From contig JANWIW010000030.1 of NCBI GenBank assembly GCA_025449695.1, positions 1,990 through 65,989 on the forward strand: a stretch of 64,000 bases of DNA, read 5' to 3'. Shown here piece after piece: positions 1 through 63,088 of the stretch (position 1 is the stretch's first letter; every line of letters begins with the position of its first letter). The notes under the pieces were generated by a model, which saw nothing but the letters and a program-made list of their open reading frames with translations, was not told the DNA's origin and did not search any database. The DNA comes from Minisyncoccota bacterium (lineage in GTDB: Bacteria; Patescibacteriota; Minisyncoccia; UBA6257; 2-01-FULL-56-20). The translations under genes and the position numbers were made by a program.

Positions 1-257
1 GGTGGTATTGCGGATCATAGACCGGCGTCGCGAATTCGGGCGGATACATGGCGACGATCATCTCGTCGTGGCCCGGCGCATCGCACTTGCGTTTGTAAAG
101 GTTCCTTTCGTTCCGCCAGGTCAGGCGTCTCTGTAGGCGGCAAGACGGACAGAAGGTGGGAGGCGGGACCCGAAGTTTGGCATAAAAGTCGAAATCGGCC
201 GGTTCAACGGTGAACGCTTGTTTGCAGTTCTGGCAGTTTTTCGTTTGAGAGCTCATT
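1..257 (-). CDS. Cys-rich multi-zinc-ribbon protein paralog, N-terminal fragment (gene runs off the window start)
   Basis: Minus-strand ATG at 257-255 translates to MSSQTKNCQNCKQAFTVEPADFDFYAKLRVPPPTFCPSCRLQRRLTWRNERNLYKRKCDAPGHDE... It shares the CxNCxxxFTxEPADxxFY...VPPPxxCxxCRxxRR...RNERxLYKRKC motif with the 392..2197 and 61253..63088 proteins. It is absent from the ORF track because no stop codon lies inside the window. Confidence 0.6.
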
Positions 258-269
258 GCTTCATATTAT

Positions 270-385
270 CTGTCATCCTGAGCCCCCCGCGAGCATACGC
301 GGGGCAGGCTCTGCAGCGGGCGAAGGGCCTTGCGCCACCGCTGAAGCTAAGGCGGCACGCGGTCGGGGTACTTCAGGATGACAGA
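270..385. repeat. MITE/REP-like palindromic repeat copy A (termini CTGTCATCCTGAG ... CTTCAGGATGACAG)
   Basis: Inverted termini are visible directly; the interior is GC-rich hairpin-forming sequence. It sits between the two tandem Cys-rich paralog genes. Confidence 0.7.
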
Positions 386-391
386 TAGGCT

Positions 392-2197
392 TCATGCCAC
401 TTCGCTTTGATAGCAGGTTTCGCAGTAGATTATCTCGGGGCGCTCGGAAGCGTACGTCGTCTGGAAGGCACTCGGGCAGGGTCCGGCATCGTGGAAATGG
501 GCGCTGTTGTTCTTATAGCCGCCGCGCTCGGACCCACTGCCGGCGCATTGGCACTGCCGGGACCAAAGGCGCAGGGGGTTCCGCTGGACCAGCCGCTGGT
601 AATGGCGACAGCTGGGGCAGAGCCGCGGCACGGGAATATTCATACTCCGGTAGAACTGGAGTTCCGAGGATATGAGCCGGAAGGCCTTGGTGCATTGCTC
701 CGCGCAGGAGCCCTTGTGCGCGCATTCGATTGTGGCCTGCAAGATAGAATCGTCCGTTTCCGTGATGGTATCCGGTATCTCTTCCTGGAGCATCGTGACG
801 GCATAGTTTTTGCCTGCCGGGTCCTTCCACACATAACCTTTCACCCTGGCCTCGTCTGGGGTCAGGGTGGCGATCTCTTGGGCTATGGTTTCGTTGTACG
901 CGAATGGAGATAGCTCGGATGGGAAGAACTCGCCGTAGGGGTAGGATTTACCCTGCTTATCCATATAAGGCATTGCGTTCATGTGCTCGATGATCTTCGG
1001 GACCAGGGTCTCGTACTCCTCTTTTGAGTACTGCTTGTTCAGGATGCAGTATTGCTTGTTGCGCAGGCCGACGCAGCCGAACAAATAAGAAGACCCGTGT
1101 GAGTTGTAAGAATAATAGATATCATGCGAATCCAGGGTAAAGCGCGAATAGAATACCCTGCTGCCCGGATAGATGGTCGAGGAATCCACGGCCAGCTCCG
1201 TGTTCAACCCCACCCGGTCGCAGTCGTAGAGATCCTTGATATTGGAATACGCGAGCCAGGTGCGGGTGCAGTCCTCTCCCCCGCCGAAGATATCGAAGCA
1301 ATGCCTGCAGTTTTTGGCATTCTCCAGGTTGTCGCCCGTGGAATTCACCGAGTGGATGATGTGAGCGTAGCGGCGCGGATACCGCATCGCATGCTCCTCG
1401 AACCTTTTCTTGATTCCTTCCAGGGCCATGGAGCTGCCGGCGTTCAGCTTGGCGAGTTCCGCTTCGTATTCTTCCTTGGAATACTGGACGTTGAATATTT
1501 GGTAGGCGCCGTTCACCAGATTGGTGCAGCCGAAGCAGTCATGGCAGTTCCGGCAGTTGAAAAGAAAGGCGCTGTTGTAGCAACTTTCGCAGTACCGGCT
1601 CCATGAGAGCCGGGAGCAGGAAATGCAGTCCACCGTCTCGTAGGCATGCTCACTCTTCGATACCCAGTAGTTGTCCAGGCACTCCTTGGAATTGAAGATG
1701 TAGGTGGAGTAGGCAGTGTTCTCGTTAAAGTCGCCACCGAAGACCAGGTAGCAGTTCTTGTTGCCCTCGGTGATACTGCAATAATCGCTGTTCACCGGGT
1801 TGATGTTCAAGAGAGCGACATCCGGGACCTGCGTCCAAAGATCTTTCACCTGCCGGAGGAAAGGCCGCGCGAAATCCATCCCCATGCCATATTCCAAGGG
1901 GTCCCAGCTATCACTCCACCAGGTGGAGTGATCGAACACCCTTTGAGGATTATCCTCGGAAAAGATGGATATCAGCTCTTCACTGTGTCCGGGAGCGCCA
2001 CACTTTCGCTTATAGAGCGTCCGCTCGTTCCTAAAGCTCATCCGCCGCACGATGCGGCAGTCGAAGCACCAGCCCGGCGGCGGAACTTTCACCCGTTCAT
2101 AAAACGCGAAGTCTGCGGGTTCTAAAGTGAACTGGGCACCGCAGTTCGCGCACGCCCGGACTTGCCCTGAACCGGTCGAAGAGATTTCCGGCTGCAT
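392..2197 (-). CDS. Cys-rich multi-zinc-ribbon protein (unknown function; contains internal duplication)
   Basis: ORF 392..2233 (-). The probable start is the internal Met MQPEISSTGSGQVRACANCG at 2197, by alignment with the paralog start MTETGTRTCANCG. The protein has about 45 Cys in CxxC and CxxCxxCxxC clusters (CRNCHDCFGC, CVGLRNKQYC). Internal repeats ...NVQYSKEEYE and ...LNKQYSKEEYE are present. N- and C-terminal ribbons share the motif F(T/R)IxPxExxFYxxxxxPxPxxCPxCR. Confidence 0.7.
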   Translation of the reverse strand: MQPEISSTGSGQVRACANCGAQFTLEPADFAFYERVKVPPPGWCFDCRIVRRMSFRNERTLYKRKCGAPGHSEELISIFSEDNPQRVFDHSTWWSDSWDPLEYGMGMDFARPFLRQVKDLWTQVPDVALLNINPVNSDYCSITEGNKNCYLVFGGDFNENTAYSTYIFNSKECLDNYWVSKSEHAYETVDCISCSRLSWSRYCESCYNSAFLFNCRNCHDCFGCTNLVNGAYQIFNVQYSKEEYEAELAKLNAGSSMALEGIKKRFEEHAMRYPRRYAHIIHSVNSTGDNLENAKNCRHCFDIFGGGEDCTRTWLAYSNIKDLYDCDRVGLNTELAVDSSTIYPGSRVFYSRFTLDSHDIYYSYNSHGSSYLFGCVGLRNKQYCILNKQYSKEEYETLVPKIIEHMNAMPYMDKQGKSYPYGEFFPSELSPFAYNETIAQEIATLTPDEARVKGYVWKDPAGKNYAVTMLQEEIPDTITETDDSILQATIECAHKGSCAEQCTKAFRLISSELQFYRSMNIPVPRLCPSCRHYQRLVQRNPLRLWSRQCQCAGSGSERGGYKNNSAHFHDAGPCPSAFQTTYASERPEIIYCETCYQSEVA

Positions 2198-2240
2198 GAT
2201 TCTCATTAAACCTAAAAGCTTGCCTTGCAGCAAGCTTCCT

Positions 2241-2320
2241 TGTCATTCCGGGAGCCAGGCGGGGCTTGTCCGGAATCCAGTACGTGCATTCCTGGATCCC
2301 GGCTCGGGGCCGGGATGATA
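2241..2320. repeat. MITE/REP-like palindromic repeat copy B (TTGTCATTCCGGGAG ... GGCCGGGATGATA)
   Basis: Same terminal motif family as copy A. It contains the CCTGGATCCCGG core seen in copies D, G and H. Confidence 0.6.
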
Positions 2321-3829: not shown

Positions 3830-4360
3830 CTATTGCGCGTTCCTGTCGCTGCGTACCGCCTGCTTCAGCGTCTCGATTTCGGTGATTAACTTTCGCACGC
3901 TCTCCTCGATACTGTCAATGGCGACGCGGGTCTTGAGGTCGCTCTGCGCTTCCTGTTCGTCTTCCTCCTGGATGCGGTCTATATCCTCGGAAAGCTCTTC
4001 CACGTCCTCGCCGATGTCCTCTACCTCCTCACCCATCCGGTCGATATCTTGGGACAACTCGCCGATGTCTTCGCCCAGATCCTCTACCTCCTCACCCAGA
4101 TCTTCAATGTTTTCCTCGACATCGGCCAAGCTCTTTGTAGCGCGGTTTACGGTCATTTGGATGAAAATGGCGAGATAGATGGCTTCCAGGGAGACCGCAG
4201 TAGTCAGGATGAGCAGGATCTGCTCGGTCGCAAGGCCGGCAAAACGCAGGGCGAAGATGCCCACGAAAAAAAGCGTGTGCAGGACGATAGATGCCGGCGA
4301 TCCGATCCATAAAGTGAGGCGCTCGGAAATATGCTCCAAAGAGGTATCGGGTCGTTCCAT
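3830..4360 (-). CDS. DUF1003-family membrane protein with acidic coiled-coil tail
   Basis: ORF 3830..4468; the likely start is MERPDTS at 4360. It has two TM segments and the motif AVSLEAIYLAIFIQ, shared with the 36550..37083 paralog (VSLEAIILAIIVLLSQNR). The C-terminus has acidic EEVEDLGEDIGEL repeats. Confidence 0.6.
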   Translation of the reverse strand: MERPDTSLEHISERLTLWIGSPASIVLHTLFFVGIFALRFAGLATEQILLILTTAVSLEAIYLAIFIQMTVNRATKSLADVEENIEDLGEEVEDLGEDIGELSQDIDRMGEEVEDIGEDVEELSEDIDRIQEEDEQEAQSDLKTRVAIDSIEESVRKLITEIETLKQAVRSDRNAQ

Positions 4361-4367
4361 AGCGGAT

Positions 4368-5444
4368 CTACCTGGCGTCCGGTTTGTCCCCTGACGGATA
4401 CTGCCGGGTAATAGTGTATACGTCGAACAGGGTGAAGAGGAGGCTAAAGACCAAGGGGCCGATGACAAAACCCAACGGGCCGAAGAAGCGCAGTCCGCCG
4501 ATCACCCCGAGGAATATCACCAAGGGATGGATGCGCGCCCATTTACCGCTCAGCTTGGGGCCGAGGACGTTGTCGATCATCCCTATCGCCAGCGCTCCCC
4601 AAATGGCCATTCCCACGCCATCCAGGACGCCGTTTGCGAGGAAGGTATAGATGACGATCGGGAATACCACGAGCGCCGTGCCCACGCCCGGGATCAGGGC
4701 GGAAACGGCAGCGGCGCTGCCCCATAAAGCGGGGTTCGGCACGCCGAACAGGGCGAAGCCGATGCCCGCGAGCAGGCCTTGGCAGAGCGCCATGACTAAG
4801 GTAACGCGGAAGACCGAACTGACGGTGAGGCCTAGCCGGTCCAGTATCTGTTTATCGTATTTGTCCGGCAGCGGGCTCAGCATAATCGCCCGGTCCCGGA
4901 TGCGGTCGCCGTCCTTAAGGAAAAAGAACAGCGACAGGATGCAAATGAAAATGTTTAGGGCAATAAGGAGCAGGTTGGAGAAAACGAAGCCTATACTATT
5001 AATGAGCCAGGTCAGGCCCTTTTGCCCGAGGTCCTGGTAATTGATTTCCAGTCCCTCCGGCAGGCGGCTCAAGATCTGCTGAACGAAGCCGTTCCCGGCC
5101 AGGCCCTGCAGGCTCCATCCGGACAGCGAACCATACGCGCCTTGCGCCTCATGGAAGACGCGTAAGCCGATCAGGGTCAGGGGCACGAACACGATCAGCG
5201 CGACAAGCAGGATGGTGGCGAGTGCGCCCAGGTTGGGGCTCCGCAGCCAGTGGGACAAATGTTCATAGACTGGCCGGAAGGTGACCGCGAGGGCCGCAGT
5301 GAAAAGGAGCGTCGGCACGTACGGCGAGACGATAAGGAAGCAGACTATGGCGATCACCCCCAAAAGACCAAAGAAAAAATACCCTTCTGCCTTTTCGAAC
5401 ATATGCTCTAGCTTAGAACGTGCGGCCGCGTTCGGCAAGCGCAT
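4368..5444 (-). CDS. AI-2E family transporter (PerM/UPF0118)
   Basis: 358 aa polytopic membrane protein with a typical AI-2E N-terminal region and GxxxG-rich C-terminus. Confidence 0.85.
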   Translation of the reverse strand: MRLPNAAARSKLEHMFEKAEGYFFFGLLGVIAIVCFLIVSPYVPTLLFTAALAVTFRPVYEHLSHWLRSPNLGALATILLVALIVFVPLTLIGLRVFHEAQGAYGSLSGWSLQGLAGNGFVQQILSRLPEGLEINYQDLGQKGLTWLINSIGFVFSNLLLIALNIFICILSLFFFLKDGDRIRDRAIMLSPLPDKYDKQILDRLGLTVSSVFRVTLVMALCQGLLAGIGFALFGVPNPALWGSAAAVSALIPGVGTALVVFPIVIYTFLANGVLDGVGMAIWGALAIGMIDNVLGPKLSGKWARIHPLVIFLGVIGGLRFFGPLGFVIGPLVFSLLFTLFDVYTITRQYPSGDKPDAR

Positions 5445-20470: not shown

Positions 20471-20546
20471 TGTCATTCCCGCCTCCGGGCGGGAATCCAC
20501 TCTTGCGCTGGATCCCGGGTAGCCTGACTGGGCTTCCGGGATGACA
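20471..20546. repeat. MITE/REP-like palindromic repeat copy D (TGTCATTCCCGCC ... CTTCCGGGATGACA)
   Basis: Termini plus the internal hairpin ATTCCCGCCTCCGGGCGGGAAT. Its 3' half is nearly identical to the 3' halves of copies G and H. Confidence 0.7.
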
Positions 20547-20558
20547 ATATCTTTCTGG

Positions 20559-52219: not shown

Positions 52220-52232
52220 GGAGATCGTGCCT

Positions 52233-52416
52233 GTCATCCCGGCCTTGCCGCCTTTTGGCACGGCTTCGCCAAGGGCGAGGCTTCCGTGAGAGGCGAGGCT
52301 CGCTTGAAGCAGCGCCTCCGGCGGGATACGAGACCCAAGCTTGTCATTCCGGCCTTGAGCCGGGATCCAGTATTTTCCTGGATCCCGGATAGCCCCGCTG
52401 GGCTTCCGGGATGACA
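52233..52416. repeat. MITE/REP-like repeat copy G (tandem composite of two elements)
   Basis: CTGTCATCCCGGCC...CAAGCT then TGTCATTCCGGCC...GGGCTTCCGGGATGACA. It is about 95% identical over 184 bp to copy H, which lies about 960 bp downstream. Confidence 0.85.
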
Positions 52417-52553
52417 AGGCCATTTCCAATCACGATTCAGTCATTAAGTATCTCATGGAAATTTCCTTGAAAGCGAGGAACGGGAATCCAGAGGCTCTCA
52501 AATCAAACTGCCCGACGCGAAGGCCGGGCAGCTGACTAATGCGTGGTTCGAAG

Positions 52554-53027: not shown

Positions 53028-53192
53028 TTCTGCCTCCAGAATGCCCCCTCGGGCTTTTAAGTCGTGATTGCTTTTTCTACCAAGCACACGCTTGGCTTCT
53101 CTTTGCATTATACAAATTTAGACTATATTTGTCAAACTTTAGCCTACCCTCCCGGCTTTGGCGCGCTACTTGCGTTGTAATCTGAAAGCATT

Positions 53193-53376
53193 GTCATCCC
53201 GGCCTTACCGCCTTTTGGCACGGCTTCGCCAAGGGCGAGGCTTCCGTGAGAGGCAAGGCTCTCTAGAAGCAGCGCCTCCGGCGGGATACGAGACCCAAGC
53301 TTGTCATTCAGGACTTGAGCCGGGATCCAGTATTTTCCTGGATCCCGGATAGCCCCGCTGGGCTTCCGGGATGACA
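53193..53376. repeat. MITE/REP-like repeat copy H
   Basis: Near-identical direct repeat of copy G. Confidence 0.85.
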
Positions 53377-53411
53377 AGGCTATCTCCGATCACCGTTACC
53401 TAGTTATTCTC

Positions 53412-53753: not shown

Positions 53754-54581
53754 CTATACGCCGAGCCCCTGCGGCTCCTTGTCTGCTTTTGCATTTTTCA
53801 TTTTGGAAACCGGCCTAGCCTTTGCGCCTTCCTCTCTCGCTGCACGCGCTTCGAAATACGCGCAATGATCGCAATCCTTGCCCTTCGGCGGGATGATATC
53901 GGCGGCAAGCGCGGAGCGCAGCTTCAGGAGCACGCTCTCCACCCAGGTGTCATTCCCCGTATACGGGATCACTTTGATATCGAACTCCAATCTGGCGTCG
54001 AAAGCCTCCTTGTCGGCATTACCGTTGCAATAAACGAAATAACCCGTACTCGAGACCCTGAACCCGTTCCTGCGGAAAAGCCATTGATATATCTCCATCT
54101 GACGCTTATAGCCGTCCTGCCATTCCGCATCCAGGCTGACCTCCTGGCTCTTGGAAGTGGCTTTGTAATCAACGATGTGCAATTCGCCGGAGGGAGCGAC
54201 CCAGACATCGTCGATCCCGCCGCGCACCAGGAGATTGGTGGGTTCATGGAAATATCGTATCCCCCGCTTCAATGAATCCCGCCATTCATCAAGCCTCTCA
54301 TCCGCGTAGGGCACCGCGTCTATGCCATAGGCCTTCATGAGCGGATGAGCGGAACCTCTCGCGCGATGGACATCGAACTCTTTCTTGAGAAGAGTGTCCA
54401 CGGCAGTGTTCAGGCTGAACGGAAAGCCCGGCGGGCGGCCCGTCCCCAGGCGCTTATCCAGGTAAAAACAACGGGGGCAGTCTACAAATAAATCTATGCC
54501 GCTCCTGCTCACTATGAAAGGCTCGTCCGACGAGGGGTCGAAGATACCTCTCGTCTTTACGGGATTATAATATTTGCTCAT
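53754..54581 (-). CDS. PD-(D/E)XK nuclease, Cas4/RecB-like with Cys cluster
   Basis: Motif II/III GGIDDVWV...ELHIVDYKATSK. Cys pairs are near both termini (VDCPRCFYL, KDCDHCAY), consistent with a Cas4/AddB-type Fe-S site. Confidence 0.7.
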   Translation of the reverse strand: MSKYYNPVKTRGIFDPSSDEPFIVSRSGIDLFVDCPRCFYLDKRLGTGRPPGFPFSLNTAVDTLLKKEFDVHRARGSAHPLMKAYGIDAVPYADERLDEWRDSLKRGIRYFHEPTNLLVRGGIDDVWVAPSGELHIVDYKATSKSQEVSLDAEWQDGYKRQMEIYQWLFRRNGFRVSSTGYFVYCNGNADKEAFDARLEFDIKVIPYTGNDTWVESVLLKLRSALAADIIPPKGKDCDHCAYFEARAAREEGAKARPVSKMKNAKADKEPQGLGV

Positions 54582-54721
54582 CTTCGTAACATTTTCCCGC
54601 GAAACCAACGCGATTGCAATCAGCGGCAAAACGACTTCGATTGACCGGTTACTTAAGCTATGGCATAAATAGACCGGTTCAGGATCGGGCCTTATCCCGA
54701 AATACGAGCGGGGAGACAGAT

Positions 54722-57076: not shown

Positions 57077-57823
57077 CTATTGCACGGTCAGGGTGCGGGT
57101 GATCAATATCGCCCCGCCCTGGGTCACGCGCAGGGTGTAGATACCGCTCTGTACCGTTACCGTCCAGGGGAACGAATTGCTCGCCGTCTGCCCGAGATAA
57201 GTGACGAGGCCATTTGCGCCGACAAGCTCTATGTTTGCACTACCCATACTGCTATTGAAGGGCGACCAAAGGATCGTGTAGAAGATGCCCCTCGTCACCA
57301 CGCTCACGTCCAGGTTGTTGCTATTCAAGACCTGGATCTGAGTGACCGGTTGGACCGGGTAAGCGCTGCCGCCGCAGTGGGAAGAGTACTGTCCGGAACC
57401 ATACTGGTTGTACGGGTACTGATTGGAGGGATACTGGTCATATTGATACTGGTTGTAACCGTACCCGTAGCAGCACTGATAGCTGTACTGCTGATAAGGA
57501 TATTGGTTGTATTGGTACTGGTTGTTGTACTGGTACTGGTTATACTGCGGGCAGTTGTTGTACTGGTAATTATTATTGTTTGTGTTCGAACACTGCCAAG
57601 ACTGCGTAGAGACGCCGTTCAGGTAACAGTAAGGGGCGCTCGTGGTTTGCTGTTGACCGGGAACGACCTGCTGCAGGTAGGCCGAGTTCTGGTTCACGTA
57701 TTGGATCGTCTGATTGGCGAGCGCGACCGCCTGGACCTGAGTAGGCCCCGGAATAGTGGGGTTATTGCTTACTGCGGCGAGCAGCGAATAAGCCAATTGG
57801 AGCAAAACGGCAGCGAAGGTCAT
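57077..57823 (-). CDS. secreted protein with Q/N/Y-rich low-complexity (prion-like) region and C-terminal beta domain
   Basis: Signal peptide, then repeats NNNNYQYNNCPQYNQYQYNNQYQYNQYPYQQYSYQCCYGYGYNQYQYDQYPSNQYPYNQY, then a roughly 100-aa C-terminal domain. The region has locally lower GC. Confidence 0.7.
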   Translation of the reverse strand: MTFAAVLLQLAYSLLAAVSNNPTIPGPTQVQAVALANQTIQYVNQNSAYLQQVVPGQQQTTSAPYCYLNGVSTQSWQCSNTNNNNYQYNNCPQYNQYQYNNQYQYNQYPYQQYSYQCCYGYGYNQYQYDQYPSNQYPYNQYGSGQYSSHCGGSAYPVQPVTQIQVLNSNNLDVSVVTRGIFYTILWSPFNSSMGSANIELVGANGLVTYLGQTASNSFPWTVTVQSGIYTLRVTQGGAILITRTLTVQ

Positions 57824-61252: not shown

Positions 61253-63088
61253 TCATAGGAACTCTTCTTTATAACATTGTTCGCAGTAAATGGCCTCCGG
61301 CGCCCCCGGCGGGTAGGTGGTCTCAAAACGGTTCGCGCACGGCGCATCCCCGTGAGAATGCGTAACAGTGTTCACGTAGGCATCTCCGCCGTTCTTTCCC
61401 CGGCACATGCAAGCTCGGGAATAGAGCCGGAACTCGTTTACCCATTGCAGCCGCTCGCGGTGCCGGCAGTTCGGGCAAAGCCGCGGCAGGGCGATGTGCA
61501 TGGTCCGGTAGAACTGCAGCTCTTCAGGGGTTATGCGGAAAGCGGTCGTGCATTCGTGGTCGCAGGTCCCTTTCCCCTTCGTCCCAACTTCGCTCAAACT
61601 GCGATGGGCACGCAAGGCCTCGGGAGACGCGGCGTGGGCGCAGCCGATCACCTGGTCCACGATGGAGTTCTCGACGTCCGCGATGTGGTCGGGCAGGTCT
61701 CCGGGATGCATGGAGATCTCATAAGCTCTATCCGGCGGATCGCGCCATGCCAGGCCTTCGGCGAGGACTTGTTCCCTTGTCTTCGGGTACCACTTAAGGG
61801 CGATAGTCTCGTTGTAGGCGTATGCGGATAGTTCCATAGGAAAGAACTCGCCGAACCCGTAGGTCCGGCCTTTCTTGTCCACGTACGGCATCTCGCCCAT
61901 GTGGGCCACGATCTTCTCCCGCAAGGCGTGGTACTCCTTCTCGGAATACTGCTTGTTCAGGATACAGTGCTTCTTGTTGCGAATGGTGATGCAACCGAAT
62001 AGGTTTACCGAGTTAGGGGAGAAATCGCAGTACATGATGTCCCTGGATCCCCGGCTGCCCGCCGTAAAAGCGCACCGCTGGGCCTGGGTGACCCCATAGA
62101 CCTCATAGAGCAGCTCGGAGGTGTCGCCGCCGCCTGTTACGTCATAACTGTCCTTAAGATTCAGTCCTCCAACATAGATGTACTTGCAGTTCTGCACGCC
62201 GTCCAGAGTGGAAAAGCACATCTGGCAGTCCTTGGTGGAGCGTATGACATCCCCTTTCACGTTCTGGCTGTTCAGGACATGGGCGTAGCGCCGGGGCGTG
62301 GCCAGGCAAAGGGAGCGGAACTTCTCCTTGGCCTCTTCCAGGCGCTTGTAGCTGCCCAAGTCCCAATAGGCCATCTCCTTGGCATACTCTTCTTTGGAGA
62401 GCTGTTCGTTGAACAGGCGGTATTTCTGTTTGCGCATGTTCACGCAACCGAAGCAATCCGAACACCCGACGCAATTGAAGAGGAACGACGAATCCAGACA
62501 GTCGTCCGAGAAATAGGCGTAACGCGTGCGGTATAGCCGGTCGGAGTGGACGGCCTCGTAGGCATGGTCGGAATTGTCGGTCACATAAGCGTCGAAGGAA
62601 TGCCGCGAGAAGAGCAGCGCGTCCGCGTATTGGGAGTCCTCCGAAAAGTAGCTCCAGAAGGTCAGGTAGCAGTTCTTGCAACTGCGGCATGCATGGGTGA
62701 ACTCGCTGTTCACGCAGTTGATACTCGTAAGGCCCGGCCGCGGCACCGCCTCCATGAGGTCGCGGTACTGCGCGAAAAAAGGACGGGAGAAATCGTAGTC
62801 CCGGCCGTAGTCCAGGGCATCCCACTTGTCCGACCACCAGCACTCGCGGCAATAGACCGTGAACGGCCCGCCTGGCGCGTGGATGCTGATCATGGACCGG
62901 CCGCACAGCCTGCAGGTGTCCCGGTAGAGGGTACGGTCCTCCCGCCAGGCCGAACGGCGCATGTCCCGGCAGGGCGGGCACCAGGTCGGGGCAGGCACGC
63001 CGATACTCTTATAGAACCCGATATCGGCGGGTTCGATCGTGAAGTCTTGCCCGCAGTTCGCGCATGTCCGCGTCCCGGTCTCCGTCAT
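61253..63088 (-). CDS. Cys-rich multi-zinc-ribbon protein paralog
   Basis: The start was set at MTETGTRTCANCGQDFTIEPADIGFYKSIGVPAPTWCPPCR. It has the same architecture and internal repeats (..NEQLSKEEYAKE / ..LNKQYSEKEYHAL, NCVGCSDCFGC) as 392..2197. Antisense ORFs 62154..62981 and 62546..63451 are rejected. Confidence 0.7.
   Translation of the reverse strand: MTETGTRTCANCGQDFTIEPADIGFYKSIGVPAPTWCPPCRDMRRSAWREDRTLYRDTCRLCGRSMISIHAPGGPFTVYCRECWWSDKWDALDYGRDYDFSRPFFAQYRDLMEAVPRPGLTSINCVNSEFTHACRSCKNCYLTFWSYFSEDSQYADALLFSRHSFDAYVTDNSDHAYEAVHSDRLYRTRYAYFSDDCLDSSFLFNCVGCSDCFGCVNMRKQKYRLFNEQLSKEEYAKEMAYWDLGSYKRLEEAKEKFRSLCLATPRRYAHVLNSQNVKGDVIRSTKDCQMCFSTLDGVQNCKYIYVGGLNLKDSYDVTGGGDTSELLYEVYGVTQAQRCAFTAGSRGSRDIMYCDFSPNSVNLFGCITIRNKKHCILNKQYSEKEYHALREKIVAHMGEMPYVDKKGRTYGFGEFFPMELSAYAYNETIALKWYPKTREQVLAEGLAWRDPPDRAYEISMHPGDLPDHIADVENSIVDQVIGCAHAASPEALRAHRSLSEVGTKGKGTCDHECTTAFRITPEELQFYRTMHIALPRLCPNCRHRERLQWVNEFRLYSRACMCRGKNGGDAYVNTVTHSHGDAPCANRFETTYPPGAPEAIYCEQCYKEEFL

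Follow-up and report, generated by a model that had tools for sequence, protein, structure and literature searches.

A 64,000-nt stretch of DNA from a Minisyncoccota bacterium (assembly GCA_025449695.1, contig JANWIW010000030.1, positions 1,990 to 65,989 of the forward strand; the whole stretch is called the window below) carries three genes, here named A, B and C, that belong to one family of large cysteine-rich proteins. The family, whose members measure about 590 amino acids (aa), is ancient and restricted to Patescibacteria, mainly Paceibacteria/Parcubacteria. It represents a new protein architecture, in which two Cys-laddered solenoids are capped by duplicated zinc-ribbon domains and for which there is no solved relative. 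Its genes occur in tandem arrays, and their neighbourhood link to orphan coupling ATPases, relatives of the VirD4/TrwB type IV coupling proteins (T4CPs), is strong and holds in both directions. We tentatively propose that the family proteins may be zinc-stabilised clients, cargo or adaptors, of a module made of the orphan coupling ATPase and the DUF8128 protein, a reading that we regard as possible rather than probable. The size of the family, its restriction to Patescibacteria, the large arrays and the linkage to VirD4-like ATPases had all been missed in an earlier examination of the window made without database searches (the sequence-only reading). The three genes are as follows.

392..2197, minus strand: paralog A, complete; 601 aa from the ATG at 2197, within an open reading frame (ORF) spanning 392..2233
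61253..63088, minus strand: paralog B, complete; 611 aa with 35 Cys, starting MTETGT
1..256, minus strand: paralog C, first 85 codons; ATG at 256, continuing past the window edge

Alternative starts for A lie at 2206 (ATG) and 2233 (TTG), but the ATG at 2197 is probably the one used, since the product is then 100% identical to the 601-aa database protein P0001. Residue numbers of A given below were counted from window positions 392-2203. The sequence-only reading had placed three paralogs of about 600 aa in the window, one of them cut by its edge, and this was borne out: A and B are 42% identical end to end (E 1e-177), and C shares 50% identity with A and 42% with B. It had overestimated their cysteine content at more than 40 residues. 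The actual counts are 32 in A and 35 in B (5.2-5.7%, against 0.8% in the remaining 68 ORFs of the window), and the family as a whole has a median of 35 Cys per member, with a range of 22-45.

A word-indexed search at E ≤1e-3 returned at least 7,772 homolog clusters at 90% identity, all annotated as "hypothetical protein"; nearly all of the named clusters among the matches listed are from Patescibacteria lineages. An exhaustive profile search gave 4,685 clusters at 50% identity, 2,046 of them at E ≤1e-30. The best 150 profile matches are mostly 550-600 aa long and none exceeds 612 aa, so that no domain fusions are visible among them. Relatives are encoded at no fewer than 546 loci in the GTDB species representatives. 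The 80 best of these belong to Nomura-, Staskawicz-, Lipton-, Jorgensen-, Wolfe-, Kaiser-, Giovannoni-, Sungii-, Niyogi- and Brennerbacteria, to Minisyncoccia and to metagenome-assembled genomes with generic labels. Two members (L005, P0275) are labelled otherwise, as Oligoflexia and as Gammaproteobacteria (the latter on a 2.2-kb contig); these labels are probably binning or labelling errors and not true spread outside Patescibacteria. A phage origin was ruled out, only one marginal match being obtained in 2.9 million viral contigs. A large part of bacterial diversity belongs to Patescibacteria, most of whose lineage-specific proteins are without a known role; the present family is among the biggest investments of these bacteria.

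The closest relatives of the window proteins are found in other genomes and not in the window itself. A is 71% identical to its best relative elsewhere, B 65% (P0124) and C 77% over 81 aa (a protein in locus L004), as compared with the 42-50% that separate the three from one another. The same holds generally: paralogs within a locus are 28-55% identical (median 41%), whereas the best match in another genome has a median identity of 59%. The duplications are therefore old and the subfamilies individually conserved, contrary to the recent expansion assumed in the sequence-only reading. Single subfamilies are about as conserved as housekeeping proteins.

ORFs were called on 82 fetched loci and on the window (83 sources) and searched with a hidden Markov model (HMM) of the family. 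This yielded 217 members, with two or more copies in 52 of the 83 sources. All but four lie on the strand of the query gene (213/217), and neighbouring copies are separated by a median of 4 nt. Locus L029 (17.8 kb) is filled by 10 consecutive copies. It overlaps with L019 on contig JALLOO010000001.1 (1-26967), from a single-cell Patescibacteria genome, and together the two contain at least 15 consecutive same-strand copies of about 1.8 kb each in 27 kb, the largest array seen. Copy number, for which the sequence-only reading had suggested a survey, ranges from 1 to at least 15 family genes between genomes. An association with ribosomal operons, seen in L001 and L002, was rejected as a general feature, being present in only 4 of 81 loci.

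VirB2 pilin genes, which are tied to type IV secretion, have been described in the same phylum as tandem arrays of 2-11 diverged paralogs; these pilins are small membrane or secreted proteins with an average identity of 25%, and Microgenomatia and Saccharimonadia are richest in such arrays (PMC12102498). The present arrays resemble them in being tandem sets of diverged paralogs, but differ in that the proteins are soluble, about 590 aa long and about 41% identical within arrays, and carry labels mostly of Paceibacteria-type lineages.

Domain architecture and relation to known folds

Forty-two sequences were aligned and analysed by profile-profile comparison with hhalign. Residues ~21-93 were found to be homologous to residues ~504-596 (probability 99.3%, E 4e-20), and residues ~134-253 to residues ~283-404 (99.5%, E 6e-23; 31% identity over 118 columns). 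These homologies define the order R1 - linker - M1 - helical hairpin - M2 - X - R2, and they uphold two proposals of the sequence-only reading, namely that the ribbons at the two ends are similar and that two modules are internally duplicated. In A, the domains map as follows.

1919..2164, minus strand: domain R1 (residues 14-95), a treble-clef-like ribbon (C18,C21...C46,C49) followed by a basic helix and a degenerate second ribbon
1478..1813, minus strand: beta-solenoid module M1 (residues 131-242), with a period-12 Cys ladder (C193/205/217 and C196/208/220)
1025..1378, minus strand: beta-solenoid module M2 (residues 276-393), ending ...LFGC377..L.N..YC386ILNKQYSKEEY
725..1024, minus strand: linker domain X (residues 394-493), with the family-wide motif YGEFFP.ELSPFAYNET.AQE
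395..724, minus strand: domain R2 (residues 494-603), a treble-clef-like ribbon (C500/C504, C529, C532)

The AlphaFold model has a mean predicted local distance difference test score (pLDDT) of 82 and a predicted template modelling score (pTM) of 0.83, confidence being low only for residues 1-10 and 133-162. R1 of A, modelled with pLDDT 82-93, shows weak similarity to the Pfam families zf_Tbcl and zf_Tbcl_2. Its second ribbon, degenerate in A, is intact in B (C59,C62,C80,C83); about 40% of paralogs, B among them, have this additional second N-terminal ribbon (at C68, C71, C91, C94). R2 also holds a second ribbon (C551, C576, C594, C597), along with C494/H496/H569/H571. The family ribbons contain two CxxC (or equivalent) pairs that could coordinate one zinc ion, and they may bind structural zinc. 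Among 191 paralogs, C18, C21, C46 and C49 are conserved in 97-98%, C504, C529 and C532 in 87-89%, and C551, C576, C594 and C597 in 98%. Conservation of at least 85% extends to C208, C217, C220, C223, C226, C377, C386 and C494. No signal peptide was detected, and a segment resembling a transmembrane (TM) helix was present in just 1 of the 217 members; the protein thus appears soluble, and the cytoplasmic location assumed in the sequence-only reading is plausible.

M1 ends in C217-x2-C220-x2-C223-x2-C226 ...N.QYSKEEY, and an axial Cys4 site is predicted in its last coil. The sequence-only reading had assigned the C-x2-C-x2-C-x2-C motif to each module. This is correct for module 1 but not for module 2, which keeps only ...FGC...YC; the two examples it had quoted, CRNCHDCFGC and CVGCSDCFGC, come from module 1 in A and in B, respectively. 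Its description of the module ends as LNKQYSKEEYE-like was accurate, both modules finishing in ...N.QYSKEEYE. The ladder cysteines upstream of the M1 motif (193/205/217 and 196/208/220) are frequently Ser in paralogs, which fits the interior of a narrow solenoid.

Conservation among A orthologs was compared with conservation among all paralogs. Family-wide conservation covers the treble clef of R1, linker residues 101-120, both module ends (211-250 and 371-400), the segment of domain X that carries its motif (421-450) and R2. The solenoid bodies (131-160, 191-210, 301-320 and 341-370) are conserved within the subfamily only; residues 141-150, for instance, score 0.95 among orthologs as compared with 0.49 family-wide. 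Common ends combined with specific bodies are the pattern expected of shared handles plus paralog-specific binding surfaces, suggesting that the solenoid bodies may give each paralog its own conserved target.

The claim that no named family accommodates these proteins survived every search made. Scans of A, B and the 42 members against Pfam, NCBIfam and PADLOC returned nothing above threshold, and neither did searches of the PDB by fold or by sequence, the latter run with one sequence, with the full profile and with a ribbon-only profile. A role as a defence system was ruled out for want of a PADLOC match. What similarity was seen links the terminal ribbons, below threshold, to zf_Tbcl/zf_Tbcl_2 (PF13451, PF23477): B scores 20.0 bits and E 7e-4, where the gathering cut-off is 24; A gave no match, and 8-9 of the 42 members match at E up to 1 (best E 1e-4). 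As in zf_Tbcl and zf_Tbcl_2, the family termini carry two CxxC pairs about 25 residues apart with F..FY between them, and the second ribbon takes the form C..C...P..RP.VYC..C, a ribbon also present on neighbouring long ATPases (see below). Those domains, however, would span only some 100-200 of the ~600 family residues, and their scores are below cut-off. To our knowledge, neither Pfam family has an established function. A search with the ribbon profile revealed no informative fusions; the matches were short fragments or free-standing proteins of some 83 aa. The latter (P0294-P0305, one of them labelled Kuenenbacteria) indicate that the terminal domain also occurs as a small protein of its own in other lineages of the Candidate Phyla Radiation (CPR).

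Module 1 has three successive C-x2-C spacings, as in the ferredoxin [4Fe-4S] motif C-x2-C-x2-C-x3-C-P, but its final spacing is x2 and not x3, no Pro follows, and the motif lies inside a solenoid coil. None of the 42 members matches a Fer4 or Radical_SAM profile. Neither a hexapeptide profile match with a close fold match, as would identify a left-handed beta-helix acyltransferase, nor a curlin repeat profile match with a Sec signal peptide, as in CsgA, was found. Among the closest known systems are narrow beta-solenoids with a Cys ladder or two sheets, namely the Tenebrio antifreeze protein (1EZG) and curlin CsgA (8C50). Both of these are secreted and are disulfide-bonded or amyloid-forming, whereas the family has no signal peptide and bears zinc-ribbon caps. 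While the treble-clef ribbons and the beta-solenoid are recognisable as elements, the family matches no known kind of protein or system. Neither the family nor DUF8128 was described in any paper found by literature searches; in a 2018 preprint on families enriched in the CPR, those enriched in Parcubacteria are noted mostly as hypothetical proteins.

Linkage to VirD4/TrwB-like ATPases and DUF8128

The non-family genes of the loci were clustered in order to find common neighbours. By far the commonest was a P-loop ATPase, represented by 49 genes in 35 of 81 loci. The ATPase occupies 30 of the 194 positions flanking runs of family genes, where it is co-oriented with them at a median gap of about 44 nt; T4CP-like ATPases make up 6.5% of flanking genes, as against the roughly two T4CPs per genome counted in a survey of Patescibacteria (PMC12102498). 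This adjacency covers many family subclusters and occurs in both gene orders, showing that it does not reflect a single frozen gene pair; the explanation that one conserved pair lies behind the link was rejected on these grounds.

The ATPase matches several Pfam families above their cut-offs (in brackets): TrwB_AAD_bind (PF10412) with 24.6 bits (20.5), T4SS-DNA_transf (PF02534) with 25.0 (20.1), TraG-D_C (PF12696) with 22.6 (22) and DUF87 with 27.5 (23.2). The Walker A motif was located, and the best relative in the PDB is TrwB. Precomputed Pfam annotations examined for 120 ATPase homologs likewise name T4CP families. NCBIfam matches are weak and point to TraD, VirD4-like CD1115 and CedD; CedD and CedB are DNA-import ATPases. 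Two types can be distinguished, both soluble. The S-type is 482-520 aa long, with the N-terminus ..IIKYAPPPPELP.. and the C-terminus ..EAEPMI, the conserved tail being ...EAEP[ML]I. It has 5,560 homolog clusters, named [quoted passage not shown] at NCBI and "TraG/TraD family ATPase VirD4" at JGI. The L-type is about 560-800 aa long, and many of its members end in ..EVPEDVLRKILE. No TM segment was found in clear S- or L-type ATPases (maximum KD19 ≤1.61). These ATPases therefore lack the N-terminal TM anchor that is usual for T4CPs, and virB4, another usual companion, was not noticed in the flanks. This is consistent with the survey, which counted 5,713 T4CP homologues, or about two per genome, across 2,918 Patescibacteria genomes, found only 148 of them near virB4 and left their function open (PMC12102498).

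The linkage was also approached from the ATPase side, using six S-type homologs on long contigs outside the first set of loci. All six loci showed the same order of genes: a sigma70_r4/HARE-HTH protein (HTH, helix-turn-helix), DUF8128 (PF26449), a TM protein of about 180 aa, the ATPase, an optional CutA1/DUF5674 gene, and family genes. The numbers of family genes that the HMM identified immediately downstream were 6, 1 (a gene broken by a frameshift), 1, 4, 6 and at least 1. Both the DUF8128 proteins and the small TM protein have N-terminal hydrophobic anchors, and they may supply a membrane anchor for the soluble ATPase. A client of a T4CP would be expected to be encoded together with a VirD4/TraD/TrwB-type ATPase; such an arrangement was found at the loci (35/81, and 6/6 in the reverse direction), though not inside the window.

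The block recovered in this way is from Paceibacteria (L084-L089; for example, L084 6888-11449), and secD-secF sometimes lie ahead of its sigma70_r4/HARE-HTH gene. In L085 (11455-13285 and 2583-4329), a single family gene is split into pieces of 480 and 145 aa, by either a frameshift or an assembly error; this locus also carries two LAGLIDADG endonuclease ORFs.

A C-terminal ribbon, CS.CGK.T.VPF.P..GRPVYCK.C, is present in 13 of the 49 ATPases, all of the L-type (those of L011, L014, L025, L031, L040, L060, L061, L063, L069, L070, L073, L076 and L078), and a long-type ATPase of L086 (14019-15905) has a precomputed Pfam match to zf_Tbcl_2. The ATPase ribbon is of the same kind as the second ribbons of the family (TC..CG...VYC..CW; ...SY.P.RPEIVYCE.CY). 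In particular, the C-terminal motif of R2, ..P.RPEIVYCE.CY, is similar to the zf_Tbcl_2 ribbon of L-type ATPases.

Possible roles of the family

If the family proteins are clients of the ATPase/DUF8128 module, the ribbons, putatively zinc-binding, would act as common handles; the conserved termini and the linker motif would dock to a common partner; and the solenoid bodies would engage paralog-specific targets. The module would then spend ATP to recruit or move the family proteins at the membrane, whether alone or carrying a ligand. A client relationship is favoured by the handle/body pattern and by the many-to-one gene ratio, and the high conservation, the folded zinc domains and the lack of a nearby virB4 argue against classical effector secretion. 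Comparable substrate sets are known. Xanthomonas effectors of the type IV secretion system share a VirD4-binding XVIPCD domain, and substrates of the type VII system are encoded beside EssC. Like these substrate sets of FtsK/VirD4-type ATPases, the present family comprises many related proteins with a shared handle, encoded beside a hexameric coupling ATPase. Unlike them, it has no XVIPCD, WXG or LXG domain and is conserved throughout the protein, not in the handle alone; moreover, its ATPase is soluble and not beside virB4.

Several observations weigh against a client role. Neither a T4CP-like ATPase nor a DUF8128 gene is found within the 64-kb window, and virB4 was not noticed among the large flanking genes of the loci, as judged from N-terminal sequences only. 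Small genomes can retain synteny between genes that are not functionally linked, and secDF, cutA1 and dnaJ are present in the same block. Conservation of the family is very strong (53-71% between orders), unlike that of typical secreted effectors, and zinc-bound, folded proteins of 600 aa are awkward cargo for a T4CP pore. The ribbon matches to Pfam fall under the curated cut-offs, and residues 133-162, the most subfamily-conserved segment, coincide with a region modelled with low confidence.

An extended form of the client reading, which we consider rather improbable, would see in the arrays the genes for the missing cargo of type IV machinery in Patescibacteria. An array would then specify a set of conserved solenoid proteins with zinc caps, each protein being specific for a different host or self target and delivered to the envelope or injected into host cells by DUF8128-anchored orphan VirD4-like ATPases. 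If this were true, the family would be central to the episymbiotic lifestyle of Paceibacteria. The conserved block provides the orphan VirD4-like ATPases with their first concrete candidate partners.

It is also conceivable, if unlikely, that the family proteins are partners of the ATPase in handling nucleic acids: the basic terminal treble-clef/ribbon domains would bind DNA or RNA, the ATPase would be a DNA pump and, together with the HTH protein, they would serve in nucleic-acid uptake, export or processing. T4CPs, TrwB and TraD are DNA-dependent translocases, and Patescibacteria cells are nucleotide-auxotrophic and depend on outside nucleic acids. The weak matches to CedD/CedB, the place of the sigma70_r4/HARE-HTH protein in the conserved block and the ribbon shared with the long ATPases are all in keeping with this idea, as are the strongly basic helix that follows each second CxxC (CRIVRRMSFRNERTLYKRKC) and the basic character of the terminal domains (pI ~8.3). 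The core of the protein is acidic, however, and the overall net charge is about -8; no nuclease or helicase, nor any known DNA-binding fold, was found. Binding to nucleic acids would also leave unexplained the need for up to 15 conserved paralogs, and relaxases are rare in Patescibacteria (PMC12102498).

We consider it distinctly unlikely that the proteins are stand-alone cytoplasmic metalloproteins (an iron-sulfur/redox, metal-buffering or enzyme family) whose Cys-rich motifs would bind Fe-S clusters or many metal ions and to which the ATPase is linked incidentally. Such a role might account for the 22-45 Cys per protein, for the conservation of C-x2-C-x2-C-x2-C in 86-96% and for the frequent presence of CutA1, a divalent-ion tolerance family, as an immediate neighbour; the window copies, too, sit among genes of housekeeping type, including MsrA and MsrB. 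Yet no Fer4, radical-SAM or other metalloenzyme profile matches, the motif lacks the C-x3-C-P ending of ferredoxins, and many of the ladder cysteines can be replaced by Ser, as expected of a structural solenoid interior. Nor would incidental synteny be expected to reappear in six of six loci approached from the ATPase side and across rearranged contexts.

More doubtful is a hetero-oligomeric scaffold, in which co-transcribed paralogs would stack their solenoids or pair their termini head to tail into a filament or lattice, in the cytoplasm or associated with the envelope, that the ATPase would assemble or remodel. Operon-like arrays of old, individually conserved paralogs are what one sees for hetero-oligomer subunits, the beta-solenoid fold resembles that of polymer formers such as curlin, and R1 and R2, being homologous, could pair. 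The variation in copy number from 1 to at least 15 between genomes is nevertheless unlike a fixed-stoichiometry assembly. In addition, the model of the monomer is a compact one (pTM 0.83) in which helices apparently cap both ends of the solenoids, and no similarity to bactofilin or other cytoskeletal families was found. Finally, a view of the genes as recent and possibly decaying duplicates, specific to the lineage and without a conserved role, as the tandem A-C pair with a mobile-element-like repeat between its members might suggest, is scarcely credible. It was ruled out by the identities of paralogs (42-50%) relative to orthologs elsewhere (65-77%), and the reading frames are intact and of full length when compared with thousands of homologs.

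The palindromic repeat and other features of the window

The A and C genes are separated by a palindromic element, which is related to other repeats in the window.

265..388, no strand assigned: palindromic element of 124 nt resembling a miniature inverted-repeat transposable element (MITE), between A and C, with no coding capacity
2238..2320, no strand assigned: second copy of the palindromic repeat family, close to A on its upstream side (TCATCCCGG ... CCGGAATGACA)
20489-20547, 52232-52433 and 53192-53393: further copies of the termini TGTCATCC...GGATGACA

The element between A and C has perfect terminal inverted repeats of 15 nt (373-387 and 267-281; TATCTGTCATCCTGA / TCAGGATGACAGATA) and a predicted RNA fold of -67 kcal/mol (z -4.3). 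A 7-nt direct repeat, ATGAAGC, flanks it at 389-395 and 258-264, with an offset of 1-2 nt. The terminal motif GGATGACA occurs 12 times in the window, as compared with 1.9 occurrences expected, and the combination TGTCATCC...GGATGACA is common to at least five places in the 64 kb, with differing interiors. When the element and one copy of ATGAAGC are removed, the TGA stop codon of A comes to lie 4 nt from the ATG of C, the spacing typical of the arrays. The terminal repeats, the fold, the flanking repeat and the restored spacing make "MITE-like", the term used in the sequence-only reading for the repeat separating the tandem pair, a fair description, and they suggest that A and C once formed a tight operon junction that was later split by insertion of the element.

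The repeats at 52232-52433 and 53192-53393 are compound palindromic repeats of 202 nt each, 96% identical and 960 nt apart. The segment between them contains ORFs with no Pfam match and is followed by a gene for a PD-(D/E)XK nuclease (53754-54629); the paired repeats could form a small composite mobile unit.

The immediate neighbours of A and B are of the ordinary housekeeping type: an M17 aminopeptidase, an AI-2E transporter and MurD for A, and a sortase, a methyltransferase, MsrA and MsrB for B. Scans for promoters and terminators and against Rfam gave nothing relevant. The gene at 3830-4468 encodes an acidic coiled-coil membrane protein with a weak DUF948 match and contains, at 3963-4088, a tandem duplication of 63 nt whose copies are 71% identical. 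At 57077-57823 on the minus strand, a 248-aa protein with no Pfam match has a hydrophobic N-terminus and a long low-complexity stretch, rich in Q, Y and N and containing several Cys, which is encoded by periodic repeats of 15-18 nt (repeat family D3).

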